A DNA stretch of 64,000 nucleotides, from positions 133,038-197,037 of the forward strand of contig CAXXPV010000007.1 in assembly GCA_963675935.2 (NCBI GenBank). The letters run 5' to 3'. The notes beneath the pieces were generated by a model that was not told the DNA's origin, made no database searches, and worked only from the letters and a program-made list of their open reading frames with translations. Below are positions 1 through 60,428 of this stretch, one piece after another; within the stretch, counting starts at the first letter, position 1; each line of letters opens with the position of its first letter. The stretch is from Thermoguttaceae bacterium (GTDB taxonomy: Bacteria; Planctomycetota; Planctomycetia; Pirellulales; Thermoguttaceae). The position numbers were made by a program, and so were the translations under genes.

Positions 1-288
1 CCGAAGATGTGATTGGCCCGAGGGGCCTATGACGAATGGGATCGGACGGTTACCTTGCCCTTTCCGCCCGGTTGGCCACCATGTTTGGTGGCACGTCACA
101 GGCCCCTATTTTATTGGTAGGTGCAATTTTCGGCAAGCTTTTTGTTGCCTACACGCGAAAAAGCCTACCTAAACACCCCAACCTCTTTTCTCGCAAACAG
201 TTGCGCCACCGCCCGGAAGAAGCGCAGACGAAACGGCCCTCGACTGCTAGAATTGTATTGGGATTTGTCTGGCCCTTGGGCTTCTTTC

Positions 289-1002
289 ATGTTCAGTTCG
301 CGGATTCTTGCTGACTTGCACGCGGCGGCGCCGTTGGTGGCGCCGTCGTTGCTGGCTTGTGATTTCGCCAAACTCGGCGAAGAAATCCGCCGCGTCGAAC
401 AGGCCGGTGCGAAGCTGCTCCATCTCGACATCATGGACGGACACTTCGTGCCCAATTTGAGCATTGGAGTTCCCGTGGTCGAGGCCGTGCGCCGCTCGAC
501 CCAATTGCCGCTCGACGTGCATCTGATGATTTCCGAGCCGGCTCGCTACGCAAGGCGGTTCCGCGAGGCCGGCGCCGATCTGCTGACGATCCACATCGAA
601 GCGATGCCCGACCCACGGCCGTTGCTCCGCGAAATTCGCGAAATGGGGGCTGTCGCGGGCCTGTCGCTCAATCCGCCCACGCCGGTCGAGTCGGTCGAAA
701 AATATCTCGACGATTGCGACCTCGTGCTGGTGATGAGCGTGATGCCGGGCTTCGGCGGCCAGAAGTTCGATCCCGTGGCGCTCGAAAAACTCCGCCGGCT
801 GCGGGAGATCGGCGGGCCAGGCCTGCTGCTGTCAGTCGATGGAGGCGTGAACGCCGACACGGCCGAAGCGTGCGCCGCGTCCGGCGCCCAACTGCTGGTG
901 ATCGGTTCGGCTTTGTTTTCTCAAGACAATTACGGCCGGTTCCTCGACGAGGTGACCGGGCTTGCCCAATCAGCGAAGGAATCGCTGGTTTCGCGATGTT
1001 AA
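289..1002 (+). CDS. rpe: ribulose-phosphate 3-epimerase
   Basis: ORF 121..1002 trimmed to the ATG at 289. Motifs PSLLACDF, HLDIMDGHFVPN, DVHLM, MSVMPGFGGQKF and VDGGVN are typical of Rpe. Confidence 0.9.
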   Translation: MFSSRILADLHAAAPLVAPSLLACDFAKLGEEIRRVEQAGAKLLHLDIMDGHFVPNLSIGVPVVEAVRRSTQLPLDVHLMISEPARYARRFREAGADLLTIHIEAMPDPRPLLREIREMGAVAGLSLNPPTPVESVEKYLDDCDLVLVMSVMPGFGGQKFDPVALEKLRRLREIGGPGLLLSVDGGVNADTAEACAASGAQLLVIGSALFSQDNYGRFLDEVTGLAQSAKESLVSRC

Positions 1003-7806: not shown

Positions 7807-7974
7807 TGGGAGGGTAGTCTCCAGCGACGAACATGCCTGCATTCATACTCAGCACTTGACAAATCCCCGGAGTTCGATCAATCTGGAGCCATTCGGGGAG
7901 GACAAGTTCGCAAGGCGGTTTCGACCGCATGAGTCGAAATCGACGACTTCTCTTTGCAACCACTGGAATAGAAA

Positions 7975-8973
7975 ATGGAACGCTATCTGGTCACCGGCTG
8001 CGCCGGATTTATCGCATCGAAAGTCGCCACACTGTTGTTGGACGCCGGCCACTCGGTTGTGGGCATCGACAACCTGAACGACGCCTATGACCCACGACTG
8101 AAGCAATGGCGGCTTGCCCAGTTGCAGACCCGCGATAACTTCAAGTTTCACCAGATTGACATTTCCGATTTCAATGTCTTGGAGCCGATCTTCGCGGCCG
8201 AGGGCAATGGGTCGCCATTTCAGGCCGTGGTCAACTTGGCGGCCCGCGCCGGCGTGCGGCCTTCGGTCGCGAATCCCTGGGTCTATTACCAGTCCAACTG
8301 TCTGGGCACGCTCAACCTGTTGGAAATGTGCCGTCGGCATGGCGTCGGCAAGTTCCTGCTGGCCTCCACGTCGAGCCTCTACGGGTTGCACAACCCGGCG
8401 CCCTACCGGGAAGACGCCGACACGAATCGGCCGTTGTCGCCCTATGCGGCCTCGAAAAAAGCGGCCGAGGCGATGGCCTTCACGTACCATCACTTGCACG
8501 GCATCGACGTTTCGATCCCCCGCTACTTCACGGTTTATGGTCCGGCCGGCCGGCCCGACATGAGCGTCTTCCGTTTCATCCGCCGCATCGCCGAGGGCGA
8601 GCCGATCGTGGTGTTCGGCGACGGATCGCAGAGCCGCGATTTCACGTTTGTCGACGACATCGCGCGGGGCACGGTCGCCGCGCTGCGCCCGCTGGGCTAC
8701 GAAGTCATCAATCTGGGCGGCGACCGGCAGGTCGAACTTCGCGCGGTCATCGACGAGATCGCCCGGCTTGTCGGAAAGAGCCCAGTGATCGAATACCGGC
8801 CGATGCACCGGGCCGACGTTCCGGCGACATGGGCCGACGTGTCGAAAGCGGCCCGACTGCTCGACTGGCGGCCGACCGTTTCAATTGAAGAGGGGCTTCG
8901 CCGTTCGGTCGAGTGGTATCAGGCGAACCGCGAAATGGCCCGCTCGCTCGAACTTTGCGACCGGACGGAGTAG
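7975..8973 (+). CDS. NAD-dependent nucleotide-sugar epimerase (UDP-glucuronate 4-epimerase-like, SDR family)
   Basis: YLVTGCAGFIASKVATLLLDAGHSVVGIDNLNDAYDPRLKQWRL, the YAASK catalytic motif, and RYFTVYGPAGRPDM. Confidence 0.8.
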   Translation: MERYLVTGCAGFIASKVATLLLDAGHSVVGIDNLNDAYDPRLKQWRLAQLQTRDNFKFHQIDISDFNVLEPIFAAEGNGSPFQAVVNLAARAGVRPSVANPWVYYQSNCLGTLNLLEMCRRHGVGKFLLASTSSLYGLHNPAPYREDADTNRPLSPYAASKKAAEAMAFTYHHLHGIDVSIPRYFTVYGPAGRPDMSVFRFIRRIAEGEPIVVFGDGSQSRDFTFVDDIARGTVAALRPLGYEVINLGGDRQVELRAVIDEIARLVGKSPVIEYRPMHRADVPATWADVSKAARLLDWRPTVSIEEGLRRSVEWYQANREMARSLELCDRTE

Positions 8974-9028: not shown

Positions 9029-9232
9029 GTCATTCTGAGCGAAGCGAAGAATCTCGTCCGCGTCGCTCCCACGGGAGATTCTTCGCTTCGCTCAGAGGAT
9101 GTGATTTTTTCGACTGCTTGACGAGGCACGCGACGTAAGTCGTTATTTCTCGTCGTTTCGGCAACCAAGGAATAAGGACTTACGTCAACGATTCCGCCAG
9201 TCGTCGAAAAAATCACAGCCTCTCAGAATGAC
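9029..9232. repeat. nested palindromes between convergent genes; probable bidirectional terminator/REP cluster
   Basis: Perfect 21-bp stem ctgagcgaagcgaagaatctc (9035-9055) / gagattcttcgcttcgctcag (9075-9095). Second stem gtgattttttcgac (9101) / gtcgaaaaaatcac (9216), enclosing gacgtaagtc/gacttacgtc. Outer arms gtcattctgag (9029) / ctcagaatgac (9232). Confidence 0.8.
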
Positions 9233-9245
9233 CGAGAATAGTCTT

Positions 9246-10892
9246 TCACCGCTTCTTCGCCCGCACTTGTTCCTTGATCCGCTGGATGTGGCCCCGGCCG
9301 AGGGCTTTGACTTCGCAGCCCAGCTCGAAGTAGCGGCGAATCCGCTCATCGGAAAGAATGCCGAAACAATCGACGACGGCCAGCGGCCCGCCTGCCCACT
9401 CGACGATCTTCTCGGGCTCGAGGTCGAGATACTGCTCGTGCGGCACGGCCAAAATCAACGCCTCGGCATGATTGAGCGCAGTCGCCAAATCCTGCTGGAC
9501 GCGGATGTCCTTGAGGCCCTCTTGATTGTGGAAGAACTGCGACCACGAATGGCCCGGCGAGGGATAGACGTCCTGCTTCTCCAACTCGAACCAGTGTTCG
9601 AGGTAGGGGTCGTGGACTCGCATCTCGGCGCCCATCTCGGTGAGCTTGCGGACGACCATTTCGGAACCGCTATAGCGGGTGTCGCCCACGTCCTGGCGAT
9701 AGCTGGCGCCGCAGATCAATACGTCGGCCCCGGCGATGTAGCGTCCCATGTTCCGCAAGGCGTCGCGCGTTAGTTCGGCGACGTGCAATGAGCGAGTGTC
9801 GTTGATATCGACCGCCGTCGGGCTGATCTTGAACACCTGATCGCCGTCCTCAAAGCCGAGGATGTGTTTGTAGGCCCAGTAACCCAGTCCGGCGTCCTTC
9901 GGCAGACAGTAACCGCCGATGCCGGGGCCTGGGAAAATCATGTTGCTGTGCGTCGGCCGCATCTTGATCGCCTTGATGACCTTGATCAGATCGACGCCGT
10001 TCCGCTCGGCGAATAGGCTCCACTCGTTCAAAAACGCCAAAATTGTCGCCCGGTACGAATTTTCGACGATCTTCGTGGTTTCCGACTCGATGGGCCGATC
10101 CATCACCGTAAGTGGAAATTGTTCGGTGTTGATGACCTCGCGCAAGAACTTTTCGACCCTTGCTCGGGCATCGGGATTGCAGCCTGAACAAACTCGCCAG
10201 AAATCGCGGATCGACGAGACGTATTCGCGGCCCGGCATCACACGCTCGAAACTGTGGGCCAGAAGCGGCTCGGTCTCAATGCCGCGACCGGCGAACGCTT
10301 TCTTCATGATCGGCCAGGCGACGAACTCCGTGGTGCCCGGCGCCACGGTCGTCTCGATCAACGTCAGGCAGCGAGGCCCAACATTTTGACCAATGGTCCG
10401 CATGGTGGCCTCGAGCGCGCTCATCTCGGCTTCGCCGTCGCGCATGTTGCCGAGTTCATGCTTCGTGTAGTCGCATTGCACGTCGACGACGACGCAGTCT
10501 GCCAGCTTCAGACAGTCGCTGTTGAAGGTGGCGACGAGAGTTTTCTTGTCCTTCACGCACCGGGCGATCATCGGCGCAACCTCGGGGTCTTCGGCCTTCA
10601 CCGGCGACTCGCCGCGGTTGAGCATCGGAATCTTCCAATAGCTGCGTGTGCTGGGTCGCTGACAGCCGATGACGAACTTGCTCGGCCGGCCGGTCTTCCG
10701 ATCAACTGTGTCGGCAATGATGGCGGCCATGACCGCCCCGACGAAGCCGACGCCCATGACCACAACCACCTCTTTGCCCTCGCGCCGGGCTTGATCGGCC
10801 AGCGTCTGAATCCGCACGAATTCCGAGGCGTAGTCGGCTTCGATAGGAAGAGGGAACTTTTCTCCGGTGGAATTTGTTGAATAGGCGGTCAT
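9246..10892 (-). CDS. nucleotide-sugar dehydrogenase (UDP-glucose/GDP-mannose dehydrogenase family, long form)
   Basis: Rossmann motif VVVVMGVGFVGAVMAAIIA, catalytic-Cys region GIGGYCLPKD, and a C-terminal UDP-binding domain. The start is taken at the ATG at 10892; the ORF extends to 10919. Confidence 0.8.
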   Translation of the reverse strand: MTAYSTNSTGEKFPLPIEADYASEFVRIQTLADQARREGKEVVVVMGVGFVGAVMAAIIADTVDRKTGRPSKFVIGCQRPSTRSYWKIPMLNRGESPVKAEDPEVAPMIARCVKDKKTLVATFNSDCLKLADCVVVDVQCDYTKHELGNMRDGEAEMSALEATMRTIGQNVGPRCLTLIETTVAPGTTEFVAWPIMKKAFAGRGIETEPLLAHSFERVMPGREYVSSIRDFWRVCSGCNPDARARVEKFLREVINTEQFPLTVMDRPIESETTKIVENSYRATILAFLNEWSLFAERNGVDLIKVIKAIKMRPTHSNMIFPGPGIGGYCLPKDAGLGYWAYKHILGFEDGDQVFKISPTAVDINDTRSLHVAELTRDALRNMGRYIAGADVLICGASYRQDVGDTRYSGSEMVVRKLTEMGAEMRVHDPYLEHWFELEKQDVYPSPGHSWSQFFHNQEGLKDIRVQQDLATALNHAEALILAVPHEQYLDLEPEKIVEWAGGPLAVVDCFGILSDERIRRYFELGCEVKALGRGHIQRIKEQVRAKKR

Positions 10893-11409
10893 GGAAGTGC
10901 TTCTTCTGGTCCAAGGCAAAAAGACACGAAAACGAACATTTTCACAATTCTACTCCGGAAAATGCAACGCTGTCGCAGCAAATACCATGCCATGGTAGGA
11001 GCGGACTCCAGCTTTGCAGCCAAACAAAGGCAACGGGACCGTTCACGGGCAGACCGGGGACTGGACCATTTTTCGGCAAATAACATTCCGCCAAAAATCG
11101 GCTGGCCTAAACCAGCCCCCCTTCCTGCGAAAACATGGGGTGCATGCCATGTTTCAGCGTGACATAAGGTGTTGTGATAATAGACGTTAGGCTGTGGCAT
11201 AACCCACAGAAGTTTTCCAGCACGGCACGCCTGGGGGGTGTCGTCTTACTTCGTTGCCGATTTTGTGTTTTATCGCCATAACATCTATCCAGCATGTGAG
11301 TTATGGCAATAATACGCACGTGCAATTCAGAGATTTCGCGATTGGTTCGGATTGCCAAAGTTTTTCACTCCGTTTCCACGATTTTGTACGTGGTTTCGAG
11401 GCATATCTC

Positions 11410-29321: not shown

Positions 29322-29512
29322 CAGAAGACAGACCACGAAATACACGAAATACACGAAAAAGGAAGAATTGATATTAGAGGTTGGTTAGAGCGTCGAGCAA
29401 TAGATGACGGTCTTAAAAACATTATTGTCCTTTGTCTTCCTTTCGTGTATTTCGTGTATTTCGTGGTTAAATAGTTTTTTCCTTTGTTTTCTTTTTGCAT
29501 TTCGTGGTTGAA
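29322..29512. repeat. about 190-bp hairpin-forming repeat, copy 1 (CACGAAATACACGAAA family)
   Basis: accacgaaatacacgaaatacacgaaaaaggaaga ... tcttcctttcgtgtatttcgtgtatttcgtggt, then ttttgcatttcgtggttgaa. An extra partial copy lies at 29284-29307. Confidence 0.8.
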
Positions 29513-29957: not shown

Positions 29958-30150
29958 AACCACGAAATACACGAAATAGGGAGAAATAGAAGAATTGATA
30001 AATTGATATTGGAGATTGATTGGAGCGTCGAGTAGCAGATGATTGTCAAAAAACATTATGGCCTTTTGTCTTCCTTTCGTGGATTTCGTGTATTTCGTGG
30101 TTTAATAGTTTTTTGCTTTCTTTGTTTTCTTTTTGCATTTCGTGTTTGAA
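29958..30150. repeat. about 190-bp hairpin-forming repeat, copy 2 (direct repeat of 29322-29512)
   Basis: aaccacgaaatacacgaaatagg...ttgtcttcctttcgtggatttcgtgtatttcgtggtttaatagttttttgc...ttttgcatttcgtgtttgaa. It is collinear with copy 1, with scattered mismatches and small indels. Confidence 0.8.
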
Positions 30151-48248: not shown

Positions 48249-48462
48249 GGGTCTTGGGTCTTGGGACTTGGGTCTTGGGACTTAGGTCTTGGGACTTGGG
48301 TCTTGGGACTTGGGTCTTGGGACTTAGGTCTTGGGACTTGGGTCTTGGGACTTGGGTCTTGGGACTTGGGTCTTGGGACTTGGTACGAAGCCCTAAGTCC
48401 TAAGCCCTAAGCCCTAAGCCCTAAGTCCCAAGTCCTAAGCCCTAAGTCCCAAATCCTAAGAC
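48249..48462. repeat. expanded 14-nt tandem repeat (GGGTCTTGGGACTT, about 9-10 units) folding back on an inverted arm (CCCTAAGTCCTAAG units); family 1
   Basis: The left arm 48249 to about 48385 is tandem gggtcttgggactt/aggtcttgggactt. The turn is near ggtacgaa, and the right arm 48391-48462 is the complementary repeat. It lies immediately after the stop at 48245. Confidence 0.85.
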
Positions 48463-51362: not shown

Positions 51363-51989
51363 ATGAACGCTCGGAGCGACGGCACTTGGCGCGGCGCGAT
51401 CGAGCCCGGCTCCGTCTCCTCGACGCTTTTGGAACAAATCCGCGCCCGCCGGCCCGAGGCCTGGCGCCGCCTGGTCGATCTCTACGGCCCGGTCGTCTAT
51501 CGCTGGTGTCGGCAACTCGGCGTGGCGCGGGCCGACGCGGCCGACGTGGTCCAAGACGTGTTCGCCGCCGTGGCCGCCGGGTTGGATCGGTTTCGACGCG
51601 ACGGCCCGCAACACAGTTTTGGCGCATGGCTGCGCACCATCGCCCGGAGCAAGGTCGGCGATCATTTCCGACGCTGTCGCGGCCATCTCGGCGCGGAAGG
51701 CGGCACCGACGCCCAGCAGCGGTGGCTCAGTCTTCCGGAGTCGGCCGAGGAGTCCTCTTCGCGCGACGCCCGGCTCGACGTGGACTCGCGTTTCGTCCAT
51801 CGCGCGCTCGACGTGGTTCGGGCGGAGTTCGAGCCGCGCACGTGGGACGCTTTTTGGCGCGTGGTGGTCGATGGCCTTGCGCCGGGCGACGTGGCCGATG
51901 CGTTGGCGATGAGTCTTCCGGCGGTCTATCAGGCGAAATCCCGCGTGTTGCGCCGGCTTCGACGCGAATGGAACGACGCGGGCGAATGA
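51363..51989 (+). CDS. ECF-type RNA polymerase sigma factor (sigma-70 family)
   Basis: Region 2: WRRLVDLYGPVVYRWCRQLGVARADAADVVQDVFAAV...FGAWLRTIARSKVGDHFRR. Region 4: ALAMSLPAVYQAKSRVLRRLR. Confidence 0.85.
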   Translation: MNARSDGTWRGAIEPGSVSSTLLEQIRARRPEAWRRLVDLYGPVVYRWCRQLGVARADAADVVQDVFAAVAAGLDRFRRDGPQHSFGAWLRTIARSKVGDHFRRCRGHLGAEGGTDAQQRWLSLPESAEESSSRDARLDVDSRFVHRALDVVRAEFEPRTWDAFWRVVVDGLAPGDVADALAMSLPAVYQAKSRVLRRLRREWNDAGE

Positions 51990-52003
51990 GCCGCAAAAAT
52001 GTG

Positions 52004-52088
52004 ATTGTTCAGCCGGCGAACTTGTTCGCCGCGTTTTTCGTCGAGATCGTCGATTATTCGCAGCGAACAAGTTCGCCGGCTAAACAAT
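52004..52088. repeat. 26-bp-stem hairpin directly downstream of the sigma gene
   Basis: attgttcagccggcgaacttgttcgc (52004-52029) pairs with gcgaacaagttcgccggctaaacaat (52063-52088) with 1 mismatch; 33-nt loop. Confidence 0.8.
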
Positions 52089-52329
52089 GGTGGAAAATGG
52101 CAAAAATGCTGTCAGACGCCCGCGTTAGACATTATAGTGATCGCGTCAAAATAGCTTGACTATTTTTTGGAACACTAATCCCCACTAATTGTCACTAATA
52201 GAAAGAGAATTAGCGAAGATTAGCGAAGATTAGTGTTCCGGGTGTTGTTTTTGAGATGTTGTAAAAATTGATCAAGTTATTATGACGCATCATCCCGTCC
52301 ATCCGGTCGTAGGCTGAAAGGATAACGCC

Positions 52330-55300
52330 ATGCCGTCCGTGGAATGCCCGAAACGCGACGAACTACTCGATTATCTCGCCGGCAAAATGCCGGACGACGC
52401 CTCCGATTCGGTTGCCGAGCATCTGGAATCTTGCACGGAGTGCCAGGCGGAACTGGCCACGCTTTCGGATGTCGAGGACACGCTGGTGGCCCGACTTCGC
52501 GGGGCGAACGTCGCCGACCCGTTTTTGGACGAGTCGGAATGCGGGCGGGCGGTTCTTCAAGCCAAGGGGGGAAAAGGGGACAGTCCCCATTTGTGCGAAG
52601 CACCCGAAGGGCCGTTCCGGCAAATGGGGACTGTCCCCTTTTCCCCGGAACCGTCCGAAACGTCGCTGCCGGGCCAGCTTGGCGAATATCGCCCTATCGA
52701 ACGGCTCGGCGCCGGCGGCATGGGCGCGGTCTACCGTGCCCTACATAGCCGGCTCGACCGCGTCGTCGCCCTGAAGGTTTTGCCCCGGGCGCGAACCGAC
52801 GACCCGCGGGCCATCGTGCGTTTCGAGCGCGAAATGAAGGCCATCGGACGCCTCGACGATCCGCACATCGTTCGGGCTTACGACGCCCGCGAGATCGACG
52901 GCCGGCTCGTGCTGGTCATGGAATTTGTCGAAGGGCTGGACCTCGGCAAGATCGTCCGCCGGCTAGGCAGCGTTCCGGCAGCCGACGCCAGCGAGCTTGC
53001 CCGGCAGGCGGCGCTCGGGCTGCAGGCCGCCCACGAACACGGCATGGTCCACCGTGATGTAAAACCGTCGAACCTGATGCTGACGCCCGAGGGTGTTGTC
53101 AAGGTGCTCGATCTGGGCTTGGCGCGATTCCAACTTGTGCCGGACGGGGGACTGTCCCAATTTTCGCTGCCGCAGGACTCTCCTTTGCCGATTGACCCAG
53201 CCGCGAAAATGGGACTGTCCCCTTCCTCGCAGCATGACGCCCAGCGGGAAAAGGGGACAGGCACCGTCGCCGCAAACCTTATCGGCAGTGAAAACCAGAC
53301 CGGGCGACGGAGCCAGTCCCCTTTTCCCGACGACGAAGCGACCGACACGGGCCAGGCGATGGGCACGGCCGACTACATGGCCCCGGAGCAGGCGGCCGAC
53401 AGTCACGCGGTCGATATCCGGGCCGACGTTTACAGTCTCGGGGCCACGCTCTACAAGTTGCTTTCCGGCCATGCGCCGTTCGACGCGCCGGGCCAGCAGG
53501 GTACGTTCGAGAAGCTGCTGGCCCATCGTCAAACGCCGCTGCCGCCGATCCGTCGCTATTGTCCCGACATTCCGGCGGGCCTTGTCGCGGTGGTCGAGCG
53601 GATGCTATCGAAAGACCCGGCAGCCCGCTACGCGACGCCGCTTGAAGCGTCCGAGGCGCTCGCGCCGTTTTGCATCGGGGCCGATTTGCCGGCGTTGTTG
53701 CGCCGGGCGATGGAGGCGAAAGCGGAGATTGCCTCACCAAAACCGCTCGCGGTTTCGCAACGACGGAAGCCGCGTCTTTCTCATGCGATTGTTCTTCTTT
53801 TGGTCGGCGTCTTCTGCTTTGCCGCGGGCGTTTTGATTACGATCACGAAAGACGGAAAGCAGATGAGCGTTGAAGTCCCCTTGGAGAGTACCACACGGAT
53901 CGGCGCAGACAGGAAGGTTGACGTGACGTTGCCCGGCGAGACCAAACGTCCTGCTTCCACTGCGGCGACGATTGGCAAATCGCCACAAAACACCGCTCTC
54001 GAATTTGAAATTGCAAGAGTTGCCGCCGAATTGGCCGCGCAACAGGCGCTTCTGGAGAGCGTGGACAAGAACAAGCCGCCTCGCGATGAATACCTCGCCT
54101 TGATCGCAAACGATCCTATCGCGAAGCGACTGGATGCGGAAGTCGCATTGAAGAGAGCAGACTTGGAGGCCGAAAAGAATGCCGTTCCAAGTTCCAATAG
54201 CGAGATCAGCCCCATCGTCGAGCGCACTCGCAAGGAATTTCTAACGCTGAGCAAACTTTACGACGAACGTTGCCACGAGCTGGCGCAAAAGGCTCGCGAT
54301 AACGAGCGTTCGCGAATTACCAACGAAATTGTGAGGCTTGCGGCGGAGTTGACGAGTTTGCAGCAGCAAGAGAAACAACAACCGATTCCGCAAGCGGTGG
54401 CGTCTGCGACACGTTTACCGCCCGTGGTTACGGTTGCCCATCCAACGGTCCGCGAAATCACCGACCATTTCGACTGTGCCGGCCGCATCCAGCCGATCCA
54501 AACGGCGGAGGTTCGACCGCAGGCAAACGGCCGCCTGACGAAGGTTCATTTCCAGGTGGGCGCGATGGTGAAGAAGGGCGACGTGCTGATGGAAATGTCC
54601 TCGGCCGAAGCGACGCCGACTGCGAAAATCACCGCCCCGATCGACGGTCGGATCAGCCAAATTGTGCCGCTTACGATTGGAAAGCTCATTACGGCCGACA
54701 GCGAAGAGCCTTTGGCCACGATCGTTTCGCTCGATTCGGTGTATGTTTGTTTTCCCGTTGACCAGAACACGGTTTTGCAATTACGGCGCAAGATGAAGCC
54801 AAACGCGCCGCTTACGGTTTTGTGCGGCGCGGCGGCCAACAACGAAGATTTTCCTTACCAAGGCAAGGTCGAGTCGGTCGATGTGCCCGTGAGTCCCGAC
54901 ATCGGCGCGGCCCAATGGCGCGCCGCGATTGTCAACAAGGACGGTTCGCTGCTGCCGGGCATGTTTGTCCGCGTGCGGCTGCTTACGGGCGCGCCCCGCA
55001 AGGCGTTGCTGATTCCCATGCAGGCGGTTAGCCGAACGGATCGAGGAGAACCTTCCGTTTTTGTGGCGAAGCAAGTTGCCAATCCTGGTCAATATGGCGC
55101 ACACAACATCGTCGAACGCCGCATAGTCAAACTCGGACAAGCAGAAAAGAAGAATCTGTGGGTCGTGGAGGAAGGGCTGACTGAGGGCGATAGCGTCGTA
55201 GTGTCGAATTCGGAAAACTTGCGCCCTGACATGATTATCTCCCCGATGGAACAGCCACCCACCGGGCCTATTTTCCAATTCGGCCCGATTGCCGAGAAAT

Positions 55301-58300
55301 TTTTGGACGTTGTGAGCGACGGCAACGGTGGGCAAGGGCTTAGACTTGATCTGCTCGGCGGCCGTGTCGTCGATCTGCCGAAAGGCTTTCATCGCCAGGG
55401 AGACAAGTTGCAGGATCTCTGGTGCGCCGATAATTGCATCGACGTGTTTTTTTCGTCCACGGAGACTCTCAATCCCAATTCCGTCAATCGCCCGCTTCTG
55501 TTGGTCTCCTGTCGGAAGCCCGCGGGAATTTTTACCAAACGATTGGAAGACGTGACCAACGCAGATGTCTACAATGCCTACGTTCGCTTGAAAGACGCCC
55601 CAGGCTTCAAAACTTGCGCGATTGCGGGCTTTCCGATTGTATTTGCCGCCGAAACGAGCAATGGCGACGTGCATATCGTGGAAGCCAGCGGTTTTGTGGA
55701 TGGCAAGAACCGCGTGAAGGTTCGGTACATGTTGTCGCAACCGCAACAAGCCAAGGCATCGAACTCCGTGGATGCACCGGCCGTCAACTCCGCCGCGGAC
55801 CTGAAGGCCCTGCAAGGCCCGTGGAAAGTCGTCCGCGTGGAAAAGGGAAAGGACGCTGACTCCTCTTGGCAAAGAATCCTTGGATACGATTTCGGGGCCA
55901 CGGACCCTGCCGCCGTCAATCGCTTCGACTTCGAAGAAAACATGCTGAAAGTCATGGCTTTCTCGCAAGGCTCCCTATGCGAGTTTCACTACCGCATCGA
56001 TCCAACAGCGACGGCCAAGGCCATCGATTTTTCCCACGGCTCCTTCGCCGCCAACAAGGAAGGTGACTTGGGCGCGGTCGGCATTTATCAGCTCGACGGT
56101 GATCGATTGAAGATTTGCCTGACGCGATACATGCTTTCGCTGAAGACCGACCAACGTCCCAAGCAATTCGCCGTCGCGCCCGGCTCGTCGGACATTCTGT
56201 TTACCCTCGAACGATTTTCTCTTCCAGAAGACTACAAAGTAATCCAGGACACATGGTCGCATTACTGGGCGGTGGTCAGTCAGATCGACGATGGGAAACC
56301 CATCCCGGCGGAAAAACTCCGTACAAGGGAATGTCTGTTTCAGGGCAACTCCGCATTCTGGATACACGATCTGAATCCCCAAGGATTATCTCACCACGAG
56401 ATAGCCAGAGGTCAGTACGTTCTCGATGCGGCGAAGCAGCCGAAAGAACTTTCGGTCTTCGATTATGGAGAATCGAGAGAGCAAGACCTCCACGGCATCT
56501 ACAAGCTCGATGGCGAGCGGCTGACCATTGCCTATCGCAAGGGCGGCCAACGACCGGCGACGTTCGAGTCGAAGCCCGGTTCCGGCGTCACGTTGTTGGA
56601 GTGTCGCAAGACAAAACGGCCGAGGCCGGCGCCAATCGCCGACGCCGAAAGCAACACGGGAATGGGCCTAATCAACAAAATAGGGACGCCGGGCGGCGGA
56701 ATGGGCGGCGGCCCGACGGCTACCGTCAACTCCGCCGCCGAATTCAAGGCGTTGCAAGGCTCCTGGAAGGTCGTGCGTGTCGAGAAGGAAAAGGACGCCG
56801 AGGCATCCTGGCCCATGCAGGGCAGAAACATGAGCGTCGCCAAGCTGGATCGCCTGCATTGCAGCGACAACTATCTGGACCTTGTAAGCTTGCAGGACGG
56901 CTCCGCCGCAACCTTGCGCTATCGCATCGACCCGGCGGCATCGCCCAAAACGATCGATCTTTTTGAACAAGGTCAGGGCGACGAGATTGGAGTCGCGGTT
57001 GCGCTCGGTTGCTATGAGGTTAAGGGCGACCGATTGACGATTCGATTGGCAAGATTCCTGCCCGTCGTGAAGGGCAATCAGCGACCGGGGAGCGTTGGCG
57101 ACAAGTCGGCTTCCGGCTCCATTCTGTTCCAGCTCGAACGCCATCAGCCTTCCGAGGACGAGAAAGCGATTCAAGGCAATTGGACCATCGCCGACCTGAC
57201 CGAGGACGGCAAGGTTCGGACCGAAGGAAATCTCGGTCCCAGAAAAATTCGGTTTACGGATGAGTTTTTCAACGTCGAATCGGTTTTTTCACCGGAAACA
57301 GTCAGGGATTTGTATTACGGCGTCTTTGCCCTGGATCCGCACGGCACGCGGGAGTCGAACACTTCTGTGCGGATTGCAAACACTGACAAGCGATTCATTC
57401 GCGTGAATAAGTCCATTACCCTTTTCAACAACCGTCTGGAGATTGACCCGGACGGCGATGGGCCGACAAAACTGGAGAAACTGCATGGCATCTACAAGTT
57501 CGATGGCGACCGCCTGACCATTGCCTATCGCAAGGGTGACAAACCGCCCGAGATGTATGAGTCGAAGCCCGGCTCGGACGTTACGTTGTTGACGCTCAAA
57601 CGAGGCGTTCCGACAGAATCGACCGGCGGAATTGGCATGCCAGGAATGGGCATGCCGGGTGGCGGAATGATGATGCCGGCGCAGCCCAAGGAGCCGCCGC
57701 TGCAATTTGGCCCGGTGGTTGAGCGGGCGATCAACACATGGCGCGAACACGCGGGAAACGATGCGATTGATCTGGTGGGCGGAAAACTCATCAATCTGCC
57801 AAAAGACTTCAGCACATTATCGGCCGAAAAGCAGGGCAAATGGTGCGAGGATAACAACGTCGATCTGGCAAACATGGACCTTGATTTTGACCTCGGCACT
57901 CCAAAGACTCGCAATAAGATGGCTCTTGTGCCCGAGGGAATGAAGCTCGCCGCGATCTGGGTTGAACGATGGAATAACGATGTCACCCGCGAAGAACTGT
58001 GCGCAGCGCTCGCATCGGCAACGCCGGGTAAAGTGGTCAGTCCCAACGGCGGCTTTATTTCGGAGCCTGTGTCCGTGATCGATCGAAAAGGCGTCGTTTA
58101 CTTCGCAATGGAGGGCGACCATGTGCTGCCCGCCACGTTCGCGTTCCAAACTCGTAAAGGCGAATTGGGCCTCATGCAGGTGCTTCGCTACACGGAACAA
58201 CCAATCGGGCTGCGGATTCGCTATAAGCTGGCGAAGCCGGCGACGGAAGCCCCCGACATGCAAAAAACCGACGACCCGGCGGCCGCCGTCTCGGCGTTCC

Positions 58301-59106
58301 TGGAGGCAGTTCGATCCGGCAACGAGAAGATGGCCGCCAAGATGCTCAGCTCGCGGGCCAGGGAAAAGTCCGCGAATCGCTCCGTCACGCCGCCGGCCAG
58401 CAGCACCGCGAAATTCACGGTCGGCAAAGTAGAGTATGTAAACGACGACGGGGCGCGAGTCGCCACGACCTGGACCGATCTCGATGCGAATGGGCAACTC
58501 AAAACCGACGAGGCGATCTGGGTGATGCGTCGAGAGCACGGCGGCTGGCGGATTACCGGCGTGGCCGCGGCGGTCTTTCCAGGTGAGCCGCCGGTATTAC
58601 TCAACTTTGAAGACCCGGAAGACATGTGGCGGAAACAGCAGTGGATACGGGAGGAGATGCGTCGGAGGACGGAGAAGCCGCAGGAAGTGCCTACGCCACC
58701 GGACGGTGCTCGCAAGCACACCGCCGCGCGCAAAATTGGACTCGACGCCTTGGACAACAAGGATGCACACGAGTTTGTGGAAGTGTTGTTTCCTTTTCCA
58801 TCCGGCAAGGAAACGCCGTGGAATCAAGTTCAGCAATTTCTGGCCGACTCGAAACCATTTCTCGGACCGGACGGCAAGTGTTCGTTTTCCTCCACGGGAA
58901 TGATCGTTACCGATGAAGCCGGTCGTATTCGGAAAATCCGCGACCAAGTCAAACCGATTGGATCGGCCGCCGTGCCGAAAGTTAAGACGCCCGCAGTCAA
59001 TCCCGCAGCCGAAGCGAAAACGTCGAAAGCGACGACGAAAGACAAGCCGGATAGTTCCGACAAGCAATCGGTCCTGTCTCCGTTGCGCGAAAAAACCGCT
59101 CGGTAG
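52330..59106 (+). CDS. 2,258-aa multidomain protein: zf-HC2 anti-sigma motif, Ser/Thr kinase, TM helix, coiled coil, HlyD-like membrane-fusion domain, two paralogous X modules, four TIGR03067-like domains, NTF2-like domain
   Basis: aa 31-38 HLESCTEC (H-x3-C-x2-C). aa 120-447 kinase (GAGGMGAVY, VALK, HRDVKPSN, DLG, YMAPE). aa 485-505 TM (AIVLLLVGVFCFAAGVLITI). aa 697-965 MFP-like (VTVAHP...AEVRPQANGRLTKVHFQVGAMVKKGDVLMEM...ITAPIDGRI...LLPGMFVRVRL...VVEEGLTEGDSVVV). Four domains end in GIY(K/Q)(L/F)DG(D/E)RL..., RP..FES/KPGS and ...L.R. Confidence 0.85.
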   Translation: MPSVECPKRDELLDYLAGKMPDDASDSVAEHLESCTECQAELATLSDVEDTLVARLRGANVADPFLDESECGRAVLQAKGGKGDSPHLCEAPEGPFRQMGTVPFSPEPSETSLPGQLGEYRPIERLGAGGMGAVYRALHSRLDRVVALKVLPRARTDDPRAIVRFEREMKAIGRLDDPHIVRAYDAREIDGRLVLVMEFVEGLDLGKIVRRLGSVPAADASELARQAALGLQAAHEHGMVHRDVKPSNLMLTPEGVVKVLDLGLARFQLVPDGGLSQFSLPQDSPLPIDPAAKMGLSPSSQHDAQREKGTGTVAANLIGSENQTGRRSQSPFPDDEATDTGQAMGTADYMAPEQAADSHAVDIRADVYSLGATLYKLLSGHAPFDAPGQQGTFEKLLAHRQTPLPPIRRYCPDIPAGLVAVVERMLSKDPAARYATPLEASEALAPFCIGADLPALLRRAMEAKAEIASPKPLAVSQRRKPRLSHAIVLLLVGVFCFAAGVLITITKDGKQMSVEVPLESTTRIGADRKVDVTLPGETKRPASTAATIGKSPQNTALEFEIARVAAELAAQQALLESVDKNKPPRDEYLALIANDPIAKRLDAEVALKRADLEAEKNAVPSSNSEISPIVERTRKEFLTLSKLYDERCHELAQKARDNERSRITNEIVRLAAELTSLQQQEKQQPIPQAVASATRLPPVVTVAHPTVREITDHFDCAGRIQPIQTAEVRPQANGRLTKVHFQVGAMVKKGDVLMEMSSAEATPTAKITAPIDGRISQIVPLTIGKLITADSEEPLATIVSLDSVYVCFPVDQNTVLQLRRKMKPNAPLTVLCGAAANNEDFPYQGKVESVDVPVSPDIGAAQWRAAIVNKDGSLLPGMFVRVRLLTGAPRKALLIPMQAVSRTDRGEPSVFVAKQVANPGQYGAHNIVERRIVKLGQAEKKNLWVVEEGLTEGDSVVVSNSENLRPDMIISPMEQPPTGPIFQFGPIAEKFLDVVSDGNGGQGLRLDLLGGRVVDLPKGFHRQGDKLQDLWCADNCIDVFFSSTETLNPNSVNRPLLLVSCRKPAGIFTKRLEDVTNADVYNAYVRLKDAPGFKTCAIAGFPIVFAAETSNGDVHIVEASGFVDGKNRVKVRYMLSQPQQAKASNSVDAPAVNSAADLKALQGPWKVVRVEKGKDADSSWQRILGYDFGATDPAAVNRFDFEENMLKVMAFSQGSLCEFHYRIDPTATAKAIDFSHGSFAANKEGDLGAVGIYQLDGDRLKICLTRYMLSLKTDQRPKQFAVAPGSSDILFTLERFSLPEDYKVIQDTWSHYWAVVSQIDDGKPIPAEKLRTRECLFQGNSAFWIHDLNPQGLSHHEIARGQYVLDAAKQPKELSVFDYGESREQDLHGIYKLDGERLTIAYRKGGQRPATFESKPGSGVTLLECRKTKRPRPAPIADAESNTGMGLINKIGTPGGGMGGGPTATVNSAAEFKALQGSWKVVRVEKEKDAEASWPMQGRNMSVAKLDRLHCSDNYLDLVSLQDGSAATLRYRIDPAASPKTIDLFEQGQGDEIGVAVALGCYEVKGDRLTIRLARFLPVVKGNQRPGSVGDKSASGSILFQLERHQPSEDEKAIQGNWTIADLTEDGKVRTEGNLGPRKIRFTDEFFNVESVFSPETVRDLYYGVFALDPHGTRESNTSVRIANTDKRFIRVNKSITLFNNRLEIDPDGDGPTKLEKLHGIYKFDGDRLTIAYRKGDKPPEMYESKPGSDVTLLTLKRGVPTESTGGIGMPGMGMPGGGMMMPAQPKEPPLQFGPVVERAINTWREHAGNDAIDLVGGKLINLPKDFSTLSAEKQGKWCEDNNVDLANMDLDFDLGTPKTRNKMALVPEGMKLAAIWVERWNNDVTREELCAALASATPGKVVSPNGGFISEPVSVIDRKGVVYFAMEGDHVLPATFAFQTRKGELGLMQVLRYTEQPIGLRIRYKLAKPATEAPDMQKTDDPAAAVSAFLEAVRSGNEKMAAKMLSSRAREKSANRSVTPPASSTAKFTVGKVEYVNDDGARVATTWTDLDANGQLKTDEAIWVMRREHGGWRITGVAAAVFPGEPPVLLNFEDPEDMWRKQQWIREEMRRRTEKPQEVPTPPDGARKHTAARKIGLDALDNKDAHEFVEVLFPFPSGKETPWNQVQQFLADSKPFLGPDGKCSFSSTGMIVTDEAGRIRKIRDQVKPIGSAAVPKVKTPAVNPAAEAKTSKATTKDKPDSSDKQSVLSPLREKTAR
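52568..52646. repeat. perfect 26-bp inverted repeat embedded in the coding sequence (GGGGACWGTCCCC family)
   Basis: ggggaaaaggggacagtccccatttg (52568-52593) and caaatggggactgtccccttttcccc (52621-52646) are exact reverse complements. Translated in frame as ...GKGDSPHLCEAPEGPFRQMGTVPFSP... Confidence 0.9.
53146..53222. repeat. imperfect inverted repeat of the GGGGACWGTCCC family inside the kinase activation segment
   Basis: gggggactgtcccaattttcgc (53146-53167) against gcgaaaatgggactgtcccc (53203-53222). Confidence 0.75.
53246..53328. repeat. 26-bp inverted repeat (2 mismatches) of the same family inside the kinase activation segment
   Basis: gggaaaaggggacaggcaccgtcgcc (53246-53271) against ggcgacggagccagtccccttttccc (53303-53328). 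Confidence 0.8.
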
Positions 59107-60177: not shown

Positions 60178-60428
60178 AAAAGCCGCGAAGCGGCGATAGT
60201 CAATAGCCAGGGGCGTGAGGCCCTGGAACCAAAGACGGTTCATGAGTGGAAGCCCCGCAGGGGCGGCAGAAGTCACTGCCGCCGCTTCGCGGTTTTTGCG
60301 AGTCGTCTACTTTTCCCACCAGGGGCTTACGCCCCTGGCTATTGACTACCGTCCCTTCGGGACTAACAATCACCTCGACAATCACGCGCATCACCAGCCG
60401 GGGACTACCGTCCCTTCGGGACTAACAA
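60178..60428. repeat. cluster of inverted and direct repeats between ykgJ-like and hisS
   Basis: ccgcgaagcggcg (60183) pairs with cgccgcttcgcgg+ttttt (60280). gtcaatagccaggggcgtgaggccctgg (60199-60226) is inverted at 60319-60346. The direct repeat gactaccgtcccttcgggactaacaa lies at 60343-60368 and 60403-60428. Confidence 0.75.

Follow-up and report, generated by a model that had tools for sequence, protein, structure and literature searches.

To our knowledge, palindromic repeats carried in frame within genes are a textbook phenomenon for Rickettsia only, with scattered intragenic REPs elsewhere. The Rickettsia palindromic elements (RPEs; Ogata et al. 2000, as summarised in PMC10969869 and PMC3733652) are approximately 100-150 bp long, occur in Alphaproteobacteria and have no known associated transposase. 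REPs tagged with GTAG or CGTC are short, GC-rich, high-copy palindromes that are mostly extragenic, with some intragenic cases that contribute 20-30 extra residues, as in Opitutus terrae (PMC3733652). Bacterial MITEs, a class of small non-autonomous repeats, can give rise to in-frame fusions (PMC10969869), and mitochondrial genes of Nematomorpha contain perfect coding inverted repeats of up to 284 bp, both arms of which are translated (PMC6649704). For planctomycetes, our search of the literature on palindromic elements and MITEs found nothing specific, and when full texts were searched for the core motif described below, the hits were only unrelated eukaryotic primer sequences.

Here we describe three hairpin elements, E1-E3, within a kinase gene of a Thermoguttaceae bacterium; the 64-kb stretch of DNA that was analysed around them is called the window. 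These elements are a new bacterial example of the palindromic “selfish” DNA inside genes that was first seen in Rickettsia. We consider it highly probable that E1-E3 represent dispersed hairpin-repeat families that were inserted in the kinase gene and are tolerated there as disordered, translated loops.

The host gene and its hairpin elements

The features of the locus, in window coordinates or in amino acids (aa) of the host protein, are:

51363-51989, forward strand: upstream ECF-type sigma factor gene (Pfam Sigma70_r2), a sigma / anti-sigma-kinase pair with the host gene
52330-59106, forward strand: host ORF of 2258 aa, from the ORF list, identical to database protein P0241
aa 10-39, forward strand: zf-HC2 anti-sigma N-terminus of the host ORF (Pfam match)
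aa ~118-436, forward strand: Hanks-type Ser/Thr kinase domain of the host ORF (Pfam and PDB matches)
52568-52646, forward strand: E1, 79-nt hairpin, peptide GKGDSPHLCEAPEGPFRQMGTVPFSP, in the linker that joins the anti-sigma zinc finger to the kinase domain
53110-53388, forward strand: activation segment from DLG (aa 261-263) to APE (aa 351-353), 93 aa, from a codon-level comparison of the window with related loci L001-L005
53146-53224, forward strand: E2, imperfect hairpin with arms GGGGACTGTCCCAATTTTCGC / GCGAAAATGGGACTGTCCCC, peptide GGLSQFSLPQDSPLPIDPAAKMGLSPS, in the activation segment
53245-53329, forward strand: E3, 85-nt hairpin, peptide REKGTGTVAANLIGSENQTGRRSQSPFP, in the activation segment
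53341-53349, forward strand: T338-D-T340, conserved activation-loop threonines, retained directly C-terminal of the inserts

The host protein matches PF00069 (Pkinase) in Pfam in two separate stretches (E=5.7e-42), and its PDB matches are StkP, PknE, PknA and PknB, with E values of ~1e-41 to 1e-44 over the catalytic core. The catalytic lysine, HRD, DLG (DFG), T-x-T region and APE of Hanks-type kinases are all there, and VALK, HRDVKPSN, DLG and APE are invariant in alignments of kinase homologues. The ORF also has a hydrophobic stretch that is predicted to span the membrane and a region like HlyD (a Pfam HlyD hit). Repeats in the ORF may resemble TIGR03067, a likeness that comes from a homologue with that source name and not from a domain hit of its own. 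Unlike StkP, PknB, PknA and PknE, the host kinase is fused with an anti-sigma zinc finger and with a C-terminal region that is very long, and it has 72 additional residues that PDB alignments place between DLG+6 and the T-x-T region.

A preliminary description of this DNA had placed three palindromic elements in frame in the kinase gene, and the 2258-aa ORF does read through all three, with the same peptides as were quoted there. The arms of E1 (52568-52593 and 52621-52646), described as exact 26-nt reverse complements, are 100% complementary over 26 nt around a 27-nt loop; the family module within this hairpin is 75 nt, or 25 codons (52570-52644), and E1 of the host gene is free of stops in all six frames. 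The two further inverted repeats of the GGGGAC(A/T)GTCCCC family that had been proposed are E2 and E3. E2 is a single imperfect hairpin whose two arms span 53146-53223 with their cores 63 nt apart, and E3 has 27-nt arms (53245-53271 and 53303-53329) that are 93% complementary around a 31-nt loop. E3 has outer arms of the E1 type (GGGAAAAGGGGACAG / CAGTCCCCTTTTCCC) and a unique inner part; CGTC occurs in E3 only inside this inner arm. One reading considered for E3 was a solo AAAAGGGGA-CAG-TCCCCTTTT palindrome that a nested element had interrupted, duplicating CAG. No family of the inner hairpin was found among the 320 loci compared, and for this reason the idea of a nested insertion stays speculative.

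RNA folding, a check that the preliminary description had proposed, found all three elements far more stable than shuffled sequence (E1, -63.4 kcal/mol, z -9.1; E2, -37.0, z -4.6; E3, -52.4, z -7.1), and 0 of 200 shuffles folded as well as E1, E2 or E3. A role as intrinsic terminators was rejected, as a consensus scan of 51900-53900 (short stem rich in GC, loop of 3-8 nt, then a T-run) flagged none of them. Rfam 15 gave only sub-threshold matches to generic hairpins (miRNA models) in the window, and none of its families matched the element copies of 10 related loci. Across the 64-kb window there are four occurrences of the core GGGACWGTCCC, every one inside the host gene; this count is marginal alone (0.99 expected, four reached by 5 of 100 shuffles) and was treated as non-significant and not counted as evidence. 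The elements themselves are clustered rather than random, with three in one gene and none in the remaining 62 kb. If the inserts are translated, GDSPHLCEAPEGPFR and QMGTVPFSPEPSETSLPGQLGEYR are the tryptic peptides to be expected.

Position of the inserts in the kinase

The activation segment is 93 aa long inclusive of DLG and APE, compared with 33 aa in the positional ortholog (L005/P0007), and the extension consists of E2 and E3. The preliminary description had the positions of DLG and APE and the abnormal length right; its figure was about 88 aa, and 93 aa is the inclusive count. The same segment is 30-39 aa long in 80 of 111 homologues, and repeat-derived inserts occupy the same spot of the activation loop in approximately 10 of the 111. 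Five or more separate lineages of the kinase family have inserts of the E2/E1 type at this site, after DLGLARF[HY]xx.

In the AlphaFold model the kinase core has a pLDDT above 90, while aa 272-340 have a pLDDT below 50 and no secondary structure, and PDB kinases align on either side of a 72-aa gap at the inserts. The insert peptides are predicted on this basis to occupy a surface or loop position that is compatible with the kinase fold. Directly beyond them, T338 is invariant in the kinase alignment, and TDTGQAMGTADYMAPE aligns with the StkP activation-loop positions that were mutated (to A or E) in deposited constructs; by this alignment, T338 and T340 are the probable phospho-acceptors. The inserts had been placed exactly where phosphorylation controls the kinase. 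They do lie within the activation segment, but N-terminal to the retained T338-x-T340, which corresponds in the alignment to the StkP/PknB phospho-threonines.

Insertion history in related loci

The positional ortholog, which shares the PSP1-DUF-sigma-kinase synteny and is 55% identical, carries none of E1, E2 and E3 (there is no insert in its N-terminal linker). Alignment of orthologs had been named earlier as a check, and this insert-free ortholog identifies the three segments as lineage-specific insertions; together with the dispersed families described below, it bears out the claim that repeat elements colonised a coding region. In a neighbor-joining tree of the kinases the sisters P0007 and P0009 are insert-free, and E2 is common to the window, P0002 and P0003.

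Copies in other loci document how freely the elements are placed. In L002, 75 nt identical to E1 (100%; 10826-10900) lie in the activation loop of a kinase that is only 48% identical, and the homologue of the window's ECF sigma factor gene in the same locus contains a 97% E1 copy as a clean 25-codon insertion in the linker between sigma2 and sigma4. This 25-aa insertion is present in the L002 protein alone in the sigma-factor alignment. A 98.6% copy of E1 is read in a different frame in L004, and a 91% copy has the reverse orientation in L003. The E2 arms of L003 are identical to those of the window at 49 of 49 nt with a diverged loop, whereas the flanking kinase sequences of the two agree at just 46-56% of third codon positions. 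L004 has an intergenic E2 copy (7969-8024), and in its kinase only six residues, GGLSPS, are left of the E2 insert; this in-frame core-to-core collapse is a visible outcome of recombination. Among FeS-protein alleles of JGI sample 3300075153, a filled/solo difference is also apparent at the protein level between P0262 and P0215/P0263.

The E1 and E2 repeat families

An E1-specific 23-mer recovered at least 120 loci from JGI metagenomes, and E2-type copies were found in several planctomycete genomes. Copies that are identical or nearly so also occur between genes and in other orientations and frames. E1 peptides are present in 284 database proteins, many of which have unrelated Pfam domains; an RND pump, PurL, UbiD, GT9 and an RM enzyme are among the further host genes. 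One element gives different peptides in different hosts, and no Pfam model matched the insert peptides. E1-E3 are in this respect members of dispersed hairpin families that lie in frame in unrelated intact genes, and in the kinase they are predicted to occupy loop positions.

The elements had been called intergenic in type, a term that does not hold for E1. Coding-like ORFs span 50 of 110 E1 copies in frame (approximately 45%), compared with 302 of 530 random positions (57%), both scored by the same home-made codon log-odds test, and 78 of 87 complete copies (90%) are free of stops in six frames, compared with 4% of 83-nt windows of the source genome. E1 is an element compatible with coding DNA rather than a stray from intergenic sequence. 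Among the broader set of elements with a GGGACWGTCCC pair, only approximately 10% are intragenic. All six classes of frame and orientation are in use among intragenic E1 copies, and the favoured frame is that of the window (KGDSPH...QMGTVPF; 21 of 38).

At the DNA level, the inner 60 nt of E1 are approximately 98% conserved in an alignment of 85 distinct copies. Pairs of the outer stem have changed on both sides in 14-23 of the 85 copies, with few unpaired cells, and the asymmetric 27-nt apex (TGCGAAGCA / CCCnnnGGG / CCGTTCCGG) is almost invariant. The core has a wider distribution than the families. As a spaced pair, GGGACWGTCCC was found in 56 stretches in IMG/VR, compared with 15, 1, 0 and 4 for four control palindromes of the same composition, and hairpin repeats that contain it are found in many phyla. 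Complete genomes of isolates, for example Bacillus salacetis, have hairpin repeats with the same core that do not belong to the E1 or E2 families.

Persistence of hairpin repeats in coding DNA

E1-E3 come from families of hairpin repeats with a self-complementary core, GGGGAC(A/T)GTCCCC, that are dispersed in Pirellulales/Thermoguttaceae-like planctomycetes, and we propose that they entered the kinase gene after its divergence from the insert-free ortholog. Their distribution alone suggests that they spread by some copy mechanism and are mobile. In this proposal the elements persist because they are compatible with translation. E1 would owe its compatibility to its 25 codons, its freedom from stops in six frames and its Gly/Pro/Ser/Thr-rich peptides; such a module, with flexible peptides, is suited to harmless insertion in genes. 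The pre-kinase linker and the stretch of activation loop N-terminal to T338/T340 would be tolerant landing sites. The ribosome would read through the elements and would therefore make a kinase with disordered loops of 25-30 aa. We infer that the inserts are translated in vivo, and they are presumably neutral or nearly so for the kinase.

The conservation of these elements as DNA raises a different explanation, in which they function as nucleic acid (a protein-binding site, an RNase III, pausing or attenuation signal, or a cruciform or recombination site that diversifies kinase loops) and the peptide is a by-product. We regard such a function as possible, if unlikely. It would account for E2 arms that are 100% identical where synonymous sites are approximately 50% identical, for the co-varying outer stems and invariant asymmetric apex of E1, for the very stable folds, and for a core that is found in many phyla and is in excess over controls as a pair in IMG/VR. 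However, recent spread or gene conversion would yield the same pattern without a host function, and correction of palindromes by template switching produces covariation of arms without selection. The copies also share no context, being found inside unrelated genes as well as between genes; the consensus scan did not flag the hairpins as terminators, and they match no Rfam family. The earlier suggestion that the elements were exapted is not supported, with conservation at the DNA level and frames that differ between copies. That the extended activation loop is kept for a regulatory role of the protein, such as autoinhibition, docking or extra phospho-sites, seems to us quite improbable: the arms of the elements are conserved as DNA but their loop parts vary freely, the same element is read in different frames in different kinases, the E2 insert of L004 has shrunk to GGLSPS, the insert region is predicted to be disordered, and sigma factors, transporters, PurL and other proteins carry the elements as well. 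A regulatory role would fit the Ser/Thr-rich composition of the inserts and their presence at one site in at least five kinase lineages. It would also fit the preference for the window's E1 frame, but this bias is equally explained by the purging of frames that are more basic and rich in Cys and Trp.

Translational bypass elements exist in some yeast mitochondria, and very stable hairpins within a coding region could mean that the transcript loses the segments or that the ribosome skips them. Six-frame freedom from stops in 90% of E1 copies and an exact 25-codon insertion would then be needless, the bias in frame use implies that the peptide is under selection, and matching take-off and landing codons are not evident, so that we find this reading highly implausible. 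Finally, the source is a metagenome assembly and the core count in the window is marginal, as would be the case for an assembly artefact or for ancestral sequence that merely looks palindromic. The probability of either is negligible. E1-E3 are unchanged in an independent sister-strain assembly (L001, ~99% nucleotide identity), which makes an artefact unlikely; copies of the families come from hundreds of contigs and many samples; and the positional ortholog has none of the elements. Both readings were rejected on the identity of L001 and the insert-free ortholog.

Some observations count against insertion and tolerance of dispersed repeats, our preferred reading. The three elements are clustered in one gene, and the identity of the E2 arms, the almost invariant apex of E1 and the covariation of its outer stem are signs of constraint that a purely passive passenger would not lead one to expect. 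The unexplained DNA conservation together with the cross-phylum core points to a mechanism of recognition or maintenance. The most economical suggestion is that hairpin-driven template switching, or gene conversion, keeps the arms perfect. A bolder hypothesis, which we consider rather unlikely, is that GGGACWGTCCC hairpins are an undescribed superfamily that crosses phyla, of which E1 and E2 are coding-adapted planctomycete branches, and that perfect stems are maintained through recognition of the core and the asymmetric apex by a conserved protein or a replication-linked mechanism. If this were true, the modules would be a general generator of disordered loops because they are free of stops in all frames and consist of whole codons, and they would time and again reshape regulatory loops, for example the activation segments of kinases and the linkers of sigma factors.

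The families provide a concrete and repeatable route for the evolution of loop length and disorder in signalling proteins, with collapse footprints such as GGLSPS still visible. They are also a warning for annotators that odd low-complexity inserts and short “hypothetical” ORFs in such genomes are derived from repeats.

Comparison with known palindromic elements

The name REP-like, under which the elements were previously introduced, is not appropriate, as the defining GTAG/CGTC tag is absent. No RAYT gene or REPtron was seen in the DNA examined. Neither the E1 consensus (GGGAAAAAGGGGACAGTCCCCATTTG...) nor the E2 arms have a terminal GTAG or CGTC, unlike REPs, and E1 lies inside genes at nearly the rate of a random position, whereas REPs are predominantly extragenic. 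The REPs of Opitutus terrae do share with the planctomycete elements a host from the PVC superphylum. MITEs differ from E1 in that E1 is one whole hairpin, and its copy-specific flanks are inverted (complementary) rather than direct repeats; no direct target duplication was present in the alignment of E1 flanks, and the DNA examined yielded no parent IS. The ORFs between paired E1 copies (L222, L244 and L273), judged by eye, are CbiM/Q-like, CheR/CheA-like and cobalamin genes, with no transposase. The coding palindromes of Nematomorpha are organellar, much longer than E1-E3 and not a dispersed family across unrelated genes and genomes.

The closest analogues are the intragenic REPs and the RPEs, and it is the RPEs that E1-E3 resemble as a functional class; this likeness is drawn from published descriptions of RPEs, and we claim no membership in the Rickettsia families. 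RPEs and E1-E3 are both dispersed palindromes with a large share of in-frame copies in unrelated genes, which add a short peptide and preserve the host protein. E1-E3 differ from RPEs in their length of 75-85 nt, their occurrence in Planctomycetota, the self-palindromic GGGGACWGTCCCC core in each arm and the conserved asymmetric apex, and E1 differs further in being free of stops in six frames and in the use of both orientations. Next to the RPEs, E1 represents a distinct and very well conserved family in free-living planctomycetes, with almost no avoidance of coding DNA relative to random positions on the same contigs.

Hairpin elements in the kinase gene

One open reading frame contains the whole region. 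Its product has a zf-HC2 anti-sigma finger at aa 10-39, a protein kinase domain split in two stretches, and HlyD-like barrel-sandwich matches (all Pfam), and an ECF-type sigma factor gene adjoins the kinase gene on its upstream side.

52330-59106: host ORF, 2258 aa
52568-52593 and 52621-52646: arms of element E1, 26 nt each, exact reverse complements, 27-nt loop
53146-53224: element E2, imperfect hairpin with GGGACTGTCCC in each arm
53245-53271 and 53303-53329: arms of element E3, 27 nt each, 93% complementary
52004-52088 and 52169-52239: two hairpin repeats, both intergenic, in the 340-nt spacer from the ECF sigma gene to the kinase start
9034-9096, 9091-9226, 29332-29467, 29958-30102, 48254-48462, 60178-60364: six hairpin repeats of other families

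The arms, peptides, DLG (aa 261-263), APE (aa 351-353) and activation segment of about 90 aa given in the preliminary description are all correct. RNA folding, which it had proposed as a check, is predicted to be stable for E1, E2 and E3 (-63.4, -37.0 and -52.4 kcal/mol; z-scores -9.1, -4.6 and -7.1), with an equally good fold in none of 200 shuffles; on the opposite strand the stability is the same. The 64-kb window has four copies of the 11-nt core, the self-complementary GGGACWGTCCC, all inside the kinase gene; against shuffles this count is only marginal.

The spacer hairpins are unrelated in sequence to E1-E3; the arms are 30 nt (93% complementary) in the first kind and 31 nt (81%) in the second, which is built from TTAGCGAAGA-type units. 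The six further repeats include two members of a ACCACGAAATACACGAAAT family, separated by about 600 nt, and a palindrome with 80-nt arms (48254-48462), and no coding-like ORF was found to span any of them. In contrast to E1-E3, all eight of these unrelated repeats are intergenic; within the window only the GGGGACWGTCCCC family is intragenic.

Two blocks of the host kinase, aa ~118-265 and aa 338-436, align with solved structures of StkP, PknE, PknA and PknB (E ~1e-41 to 1e-44), and the gap between the blocks is 72 residues in the host versus about 8 in solved Hanks kinases. The second block starts with T338-D-T340, which match StkP activation-loop positions changed to A or E in deposited constructs, and T338 is invariant in the alignment of relatives. 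E2 and E3 thus lie within the activation segment, as originally described, but N-terminal to T338 and T340, the likely phospho-acceptors, both of which are retained. In the AlphaFold model (64 homologues) the core has pLDDT >90, while aa 272-340 have pLDDT <50 and no secondary structure.

A sister strain (L001), elsewhere about 99% identical in nucleotides, has a different 3.3-kb segment (L001 11604-14937 versus window 53933-57047), which carries the reverse transcriptase gene of a group II intron in the opposite orientation (L001 11758-13161). Its kinase ORF stops at 564 aa and lacks the HlyD-like part.

Repeated insertion at one site

The closest homologues, where named, come from Thermoguttaceae, Pirellulales or Planctomycetota. 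The positional ortholog (P0007, locus L005) is 55% identical and shares the upstream PSP1 - DUF - sigma synteny, but it spans DLG to APE in 33 aa and has nothing inserted in the N-terminal linker. The DLG-APE segment measures 30-39 aa in 80 of 111 homologues and exceeds 50 aa in about ten, with repeat-derived peptides at the same spot. The ortholog comparison suggested earlier thus supports the view that E1-E3 are lineage-specific repeat insertions into a coding region, read as loops. All three are unchanged in the sister strain, which argues against an assembly artefact.

The history of the inserts was traced on an NJ tree, a crude one, built from the kinase core. The clade of the window kinase, P0002 (from locus L004) and P0003 has E2 in common, and its sisters P0007 and P0009 lack it. 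P0120, P0052, P0005, P0065 and P0019 fall in other clades amid insert-free kinases, yet their E2- or E1-type inserts occupy the same site, indicating that it was colonised repeatedly. At the E2 site of L004, GGGGGACTGTCGCCTTCC (10799-10816, peptide GGLSPS) looks like the exact remnant expected from in-frame deletion between the two E2 cores. These cores lie 63-66 nt apart; being palindromes themselves, they form direct repeats as well as inverted ones. FeS-protein alleles with at least 92% identity show, at the protein level, a comparable pair of a solo and a full form.

The GGLSPS footprint in L004 is directly followed by a copy of E1 and by a small third palindrome. A further family of short palindromes, GGTGGCAGTTGAACTGCCACC (peptide VAVELPPQR, L004 ~10915-10935), recurs in the activation loops of P0002, P0004, P0093 and P0120.

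A repeat family compatible with coding DNA

The 75-nt E1 module (52570-52644) is 100% identical to L002 10826-10900, located in the activation loop of a kinase with only 48% protein identity to the host. The adjoining ECF sigma factor gene (L002 8946-9641) carries a 97% copy (9329-9400) that inserts exactly 25 codons, PEKGDSPHLCEAPGGPFRQMGAVPF, into the sigma2-sigma4 linker, and four orthologs lack these 25 residues; of the filled/empty comparisons, this is the cleanest. In L004 a 98.6% copy is read in another frame (GERGQSPFVRRTRRAVPANGDCPLSP), and L003 has a 91% copy, reversed, at the same N-terminal linker site as in the window. The L003 kinase has the E2 arms, with 100% identity, in its activation loop, and L004 contains an intergenic copy of E2. 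Scanning JGI metagenomes with an E1-specific 23-mer gave at least 120 loci, and the 85 distinct copies aligned are near-invariant internally (consensus GGGAAAAAGGGGACAGTCCCCATTTGTGCGAAGCACCCnnnGGGCCGTTCCGGCAAATGGGGACTGTCCCCTTTTTCCC).

We scored copies as intragenic with a codon log-odds model trained on Pfam-supported genes of L001-L005, the ORF being coding-like on both sides. Coding-like ORFs span 50 of 110 E1 copies in frame; for 75-nt positions picked at random from these loci the count is 302 of 530. In other words, E1 barely avoids coding DNA, and the label "intergenic-type" is not supported. E1 copies use all six orientation and frame classes, with the KGDSPH...QMGTVPF reading favoured (21/38), and stop codons are absent from all six frames in 78 of 87 complete copies, a property of only 4% of this genome's 83-nt windows and 0.5% of shuffles. 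A six-frame E1 peptide query matched 284 proteins, among them kinases, sigma factors, response regulators, histidine kinases, ABC proteins, AIR synthase-related proteins, GatB and DUF2344.

Possible constraint at the DNA level

The window and L003 have identical E2 arms (23/23 and 26/26 nt), whereas flanking kinase third codon positions are only 46-56% and the E2 loop about 50% identical. The outermost three to four E1 stem pairs are copy-specific yet complementary (alignment of E1 copies, columns 9-13 and 85-89); at columns 11-13 with 85-87 both sides have changed in 14-23 of 85 copies, with at most 7 unpaired. The flanks thus form inverted repeats, not direct ones, which is unusual for transposition, and no direct target duplications were seen in the flank alignment. 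The asymmetric 27-nt apex, three 9-nt mini-hairpins (TGC-GAA-GCA, CCC-nnn-GGG, CCG-TTC-CGG), is invariant except for the central triloop.

Arm identity, stem covariation, invariant apex and the lack of target duplications do not fit a passive passenger. Such features could stem from recent spread, from copy-to-copy gene conversion or from correction of palindromes through template switching, which is a known mode of mutation; recognition by some factor could also produce them. We consider E1-E3 probably translated, tolerated insertions; the description of them as "exapted" is not supported, and an added nucleic-acid-level function of the hairpins is possible but rather unlikely.

The core motif elsewhere

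Among the matches listed in GTDB genomes, the paired core (GGGACWGTCCC-N25-55-GGGACWGTCCC) occurs in many phyla, its hosts including Planctomycetota, Actinomycetota, Bacillaceae, Prevotella, Omnitrophota, Saccharibacteria, Nitrospirota, Burkholderiales and others. Only about 10% of those listed are intragenic by the codon log-odds test, with in-frame matches in real genes for an RND pump, PUFA/PKS linkers, PurL, a GT9 fusion, UbiD and an RM enzyme. IMG/VR holds 56 paired-core stretches, versus 15, 1, 0 and 4 for four palindromes of the same composition. The matches are heterogeneous, among them hairpins, tandem iterons and a phage/Nitrospirota family that has a GTAG and a conserved bulge.

That family reads GGGGACTGTCCC-RGAATTACGG, a small hairpin, then CCGTAGATTC-GGGACTGTCCCC, with the bulge adjoining GTAG in the stem; its cores share the central base, giving a T.T or A.A mismatch if the long hairpin formed. 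Several copies occur per viral contig in IMG/VR (L137, L161, L176, L167, L135), and others in MAGs of Nitrospirota, Thermodesulfovibrionales and Deltaproteobacteria (L016, L032, L075, L076). Bacillaceae loci (L053, L057, L063, L064, L079, L101) have apparently intergenic pairs of short self-palindromes, e.g. CTAAAAGGGACAGTCCCTTTTAG, with a conserved TTAACGCGTT-like spacer; they have the core in common with the planctomycete elements, and their flanks are unrelated.

Relation to known repeats

No Rfam family covering these repeats was found in the region and related loci, nor any mention of GGGACWGTCCC in the literature searched. E1-E3 are not classical MITEs, there being no target-site duplication and, in the DNA examined, no parent IS. 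The "REP-like" label is not supported, and the elements fall outside the REP superfamilies as defined: they have no GTAG or CGTC tag and are not mainly extragenic, and no RAYT gene was seen in the DNA examined. E1-E3 belong with coding-compatible palindromic repeats. They are functionally like the Rickettsia palindromic elements, and similar behaviour is known for some GTAG/CGTC REPs located inside genes, as in Opitutus terrae (PMC10969869, PMC3733652).
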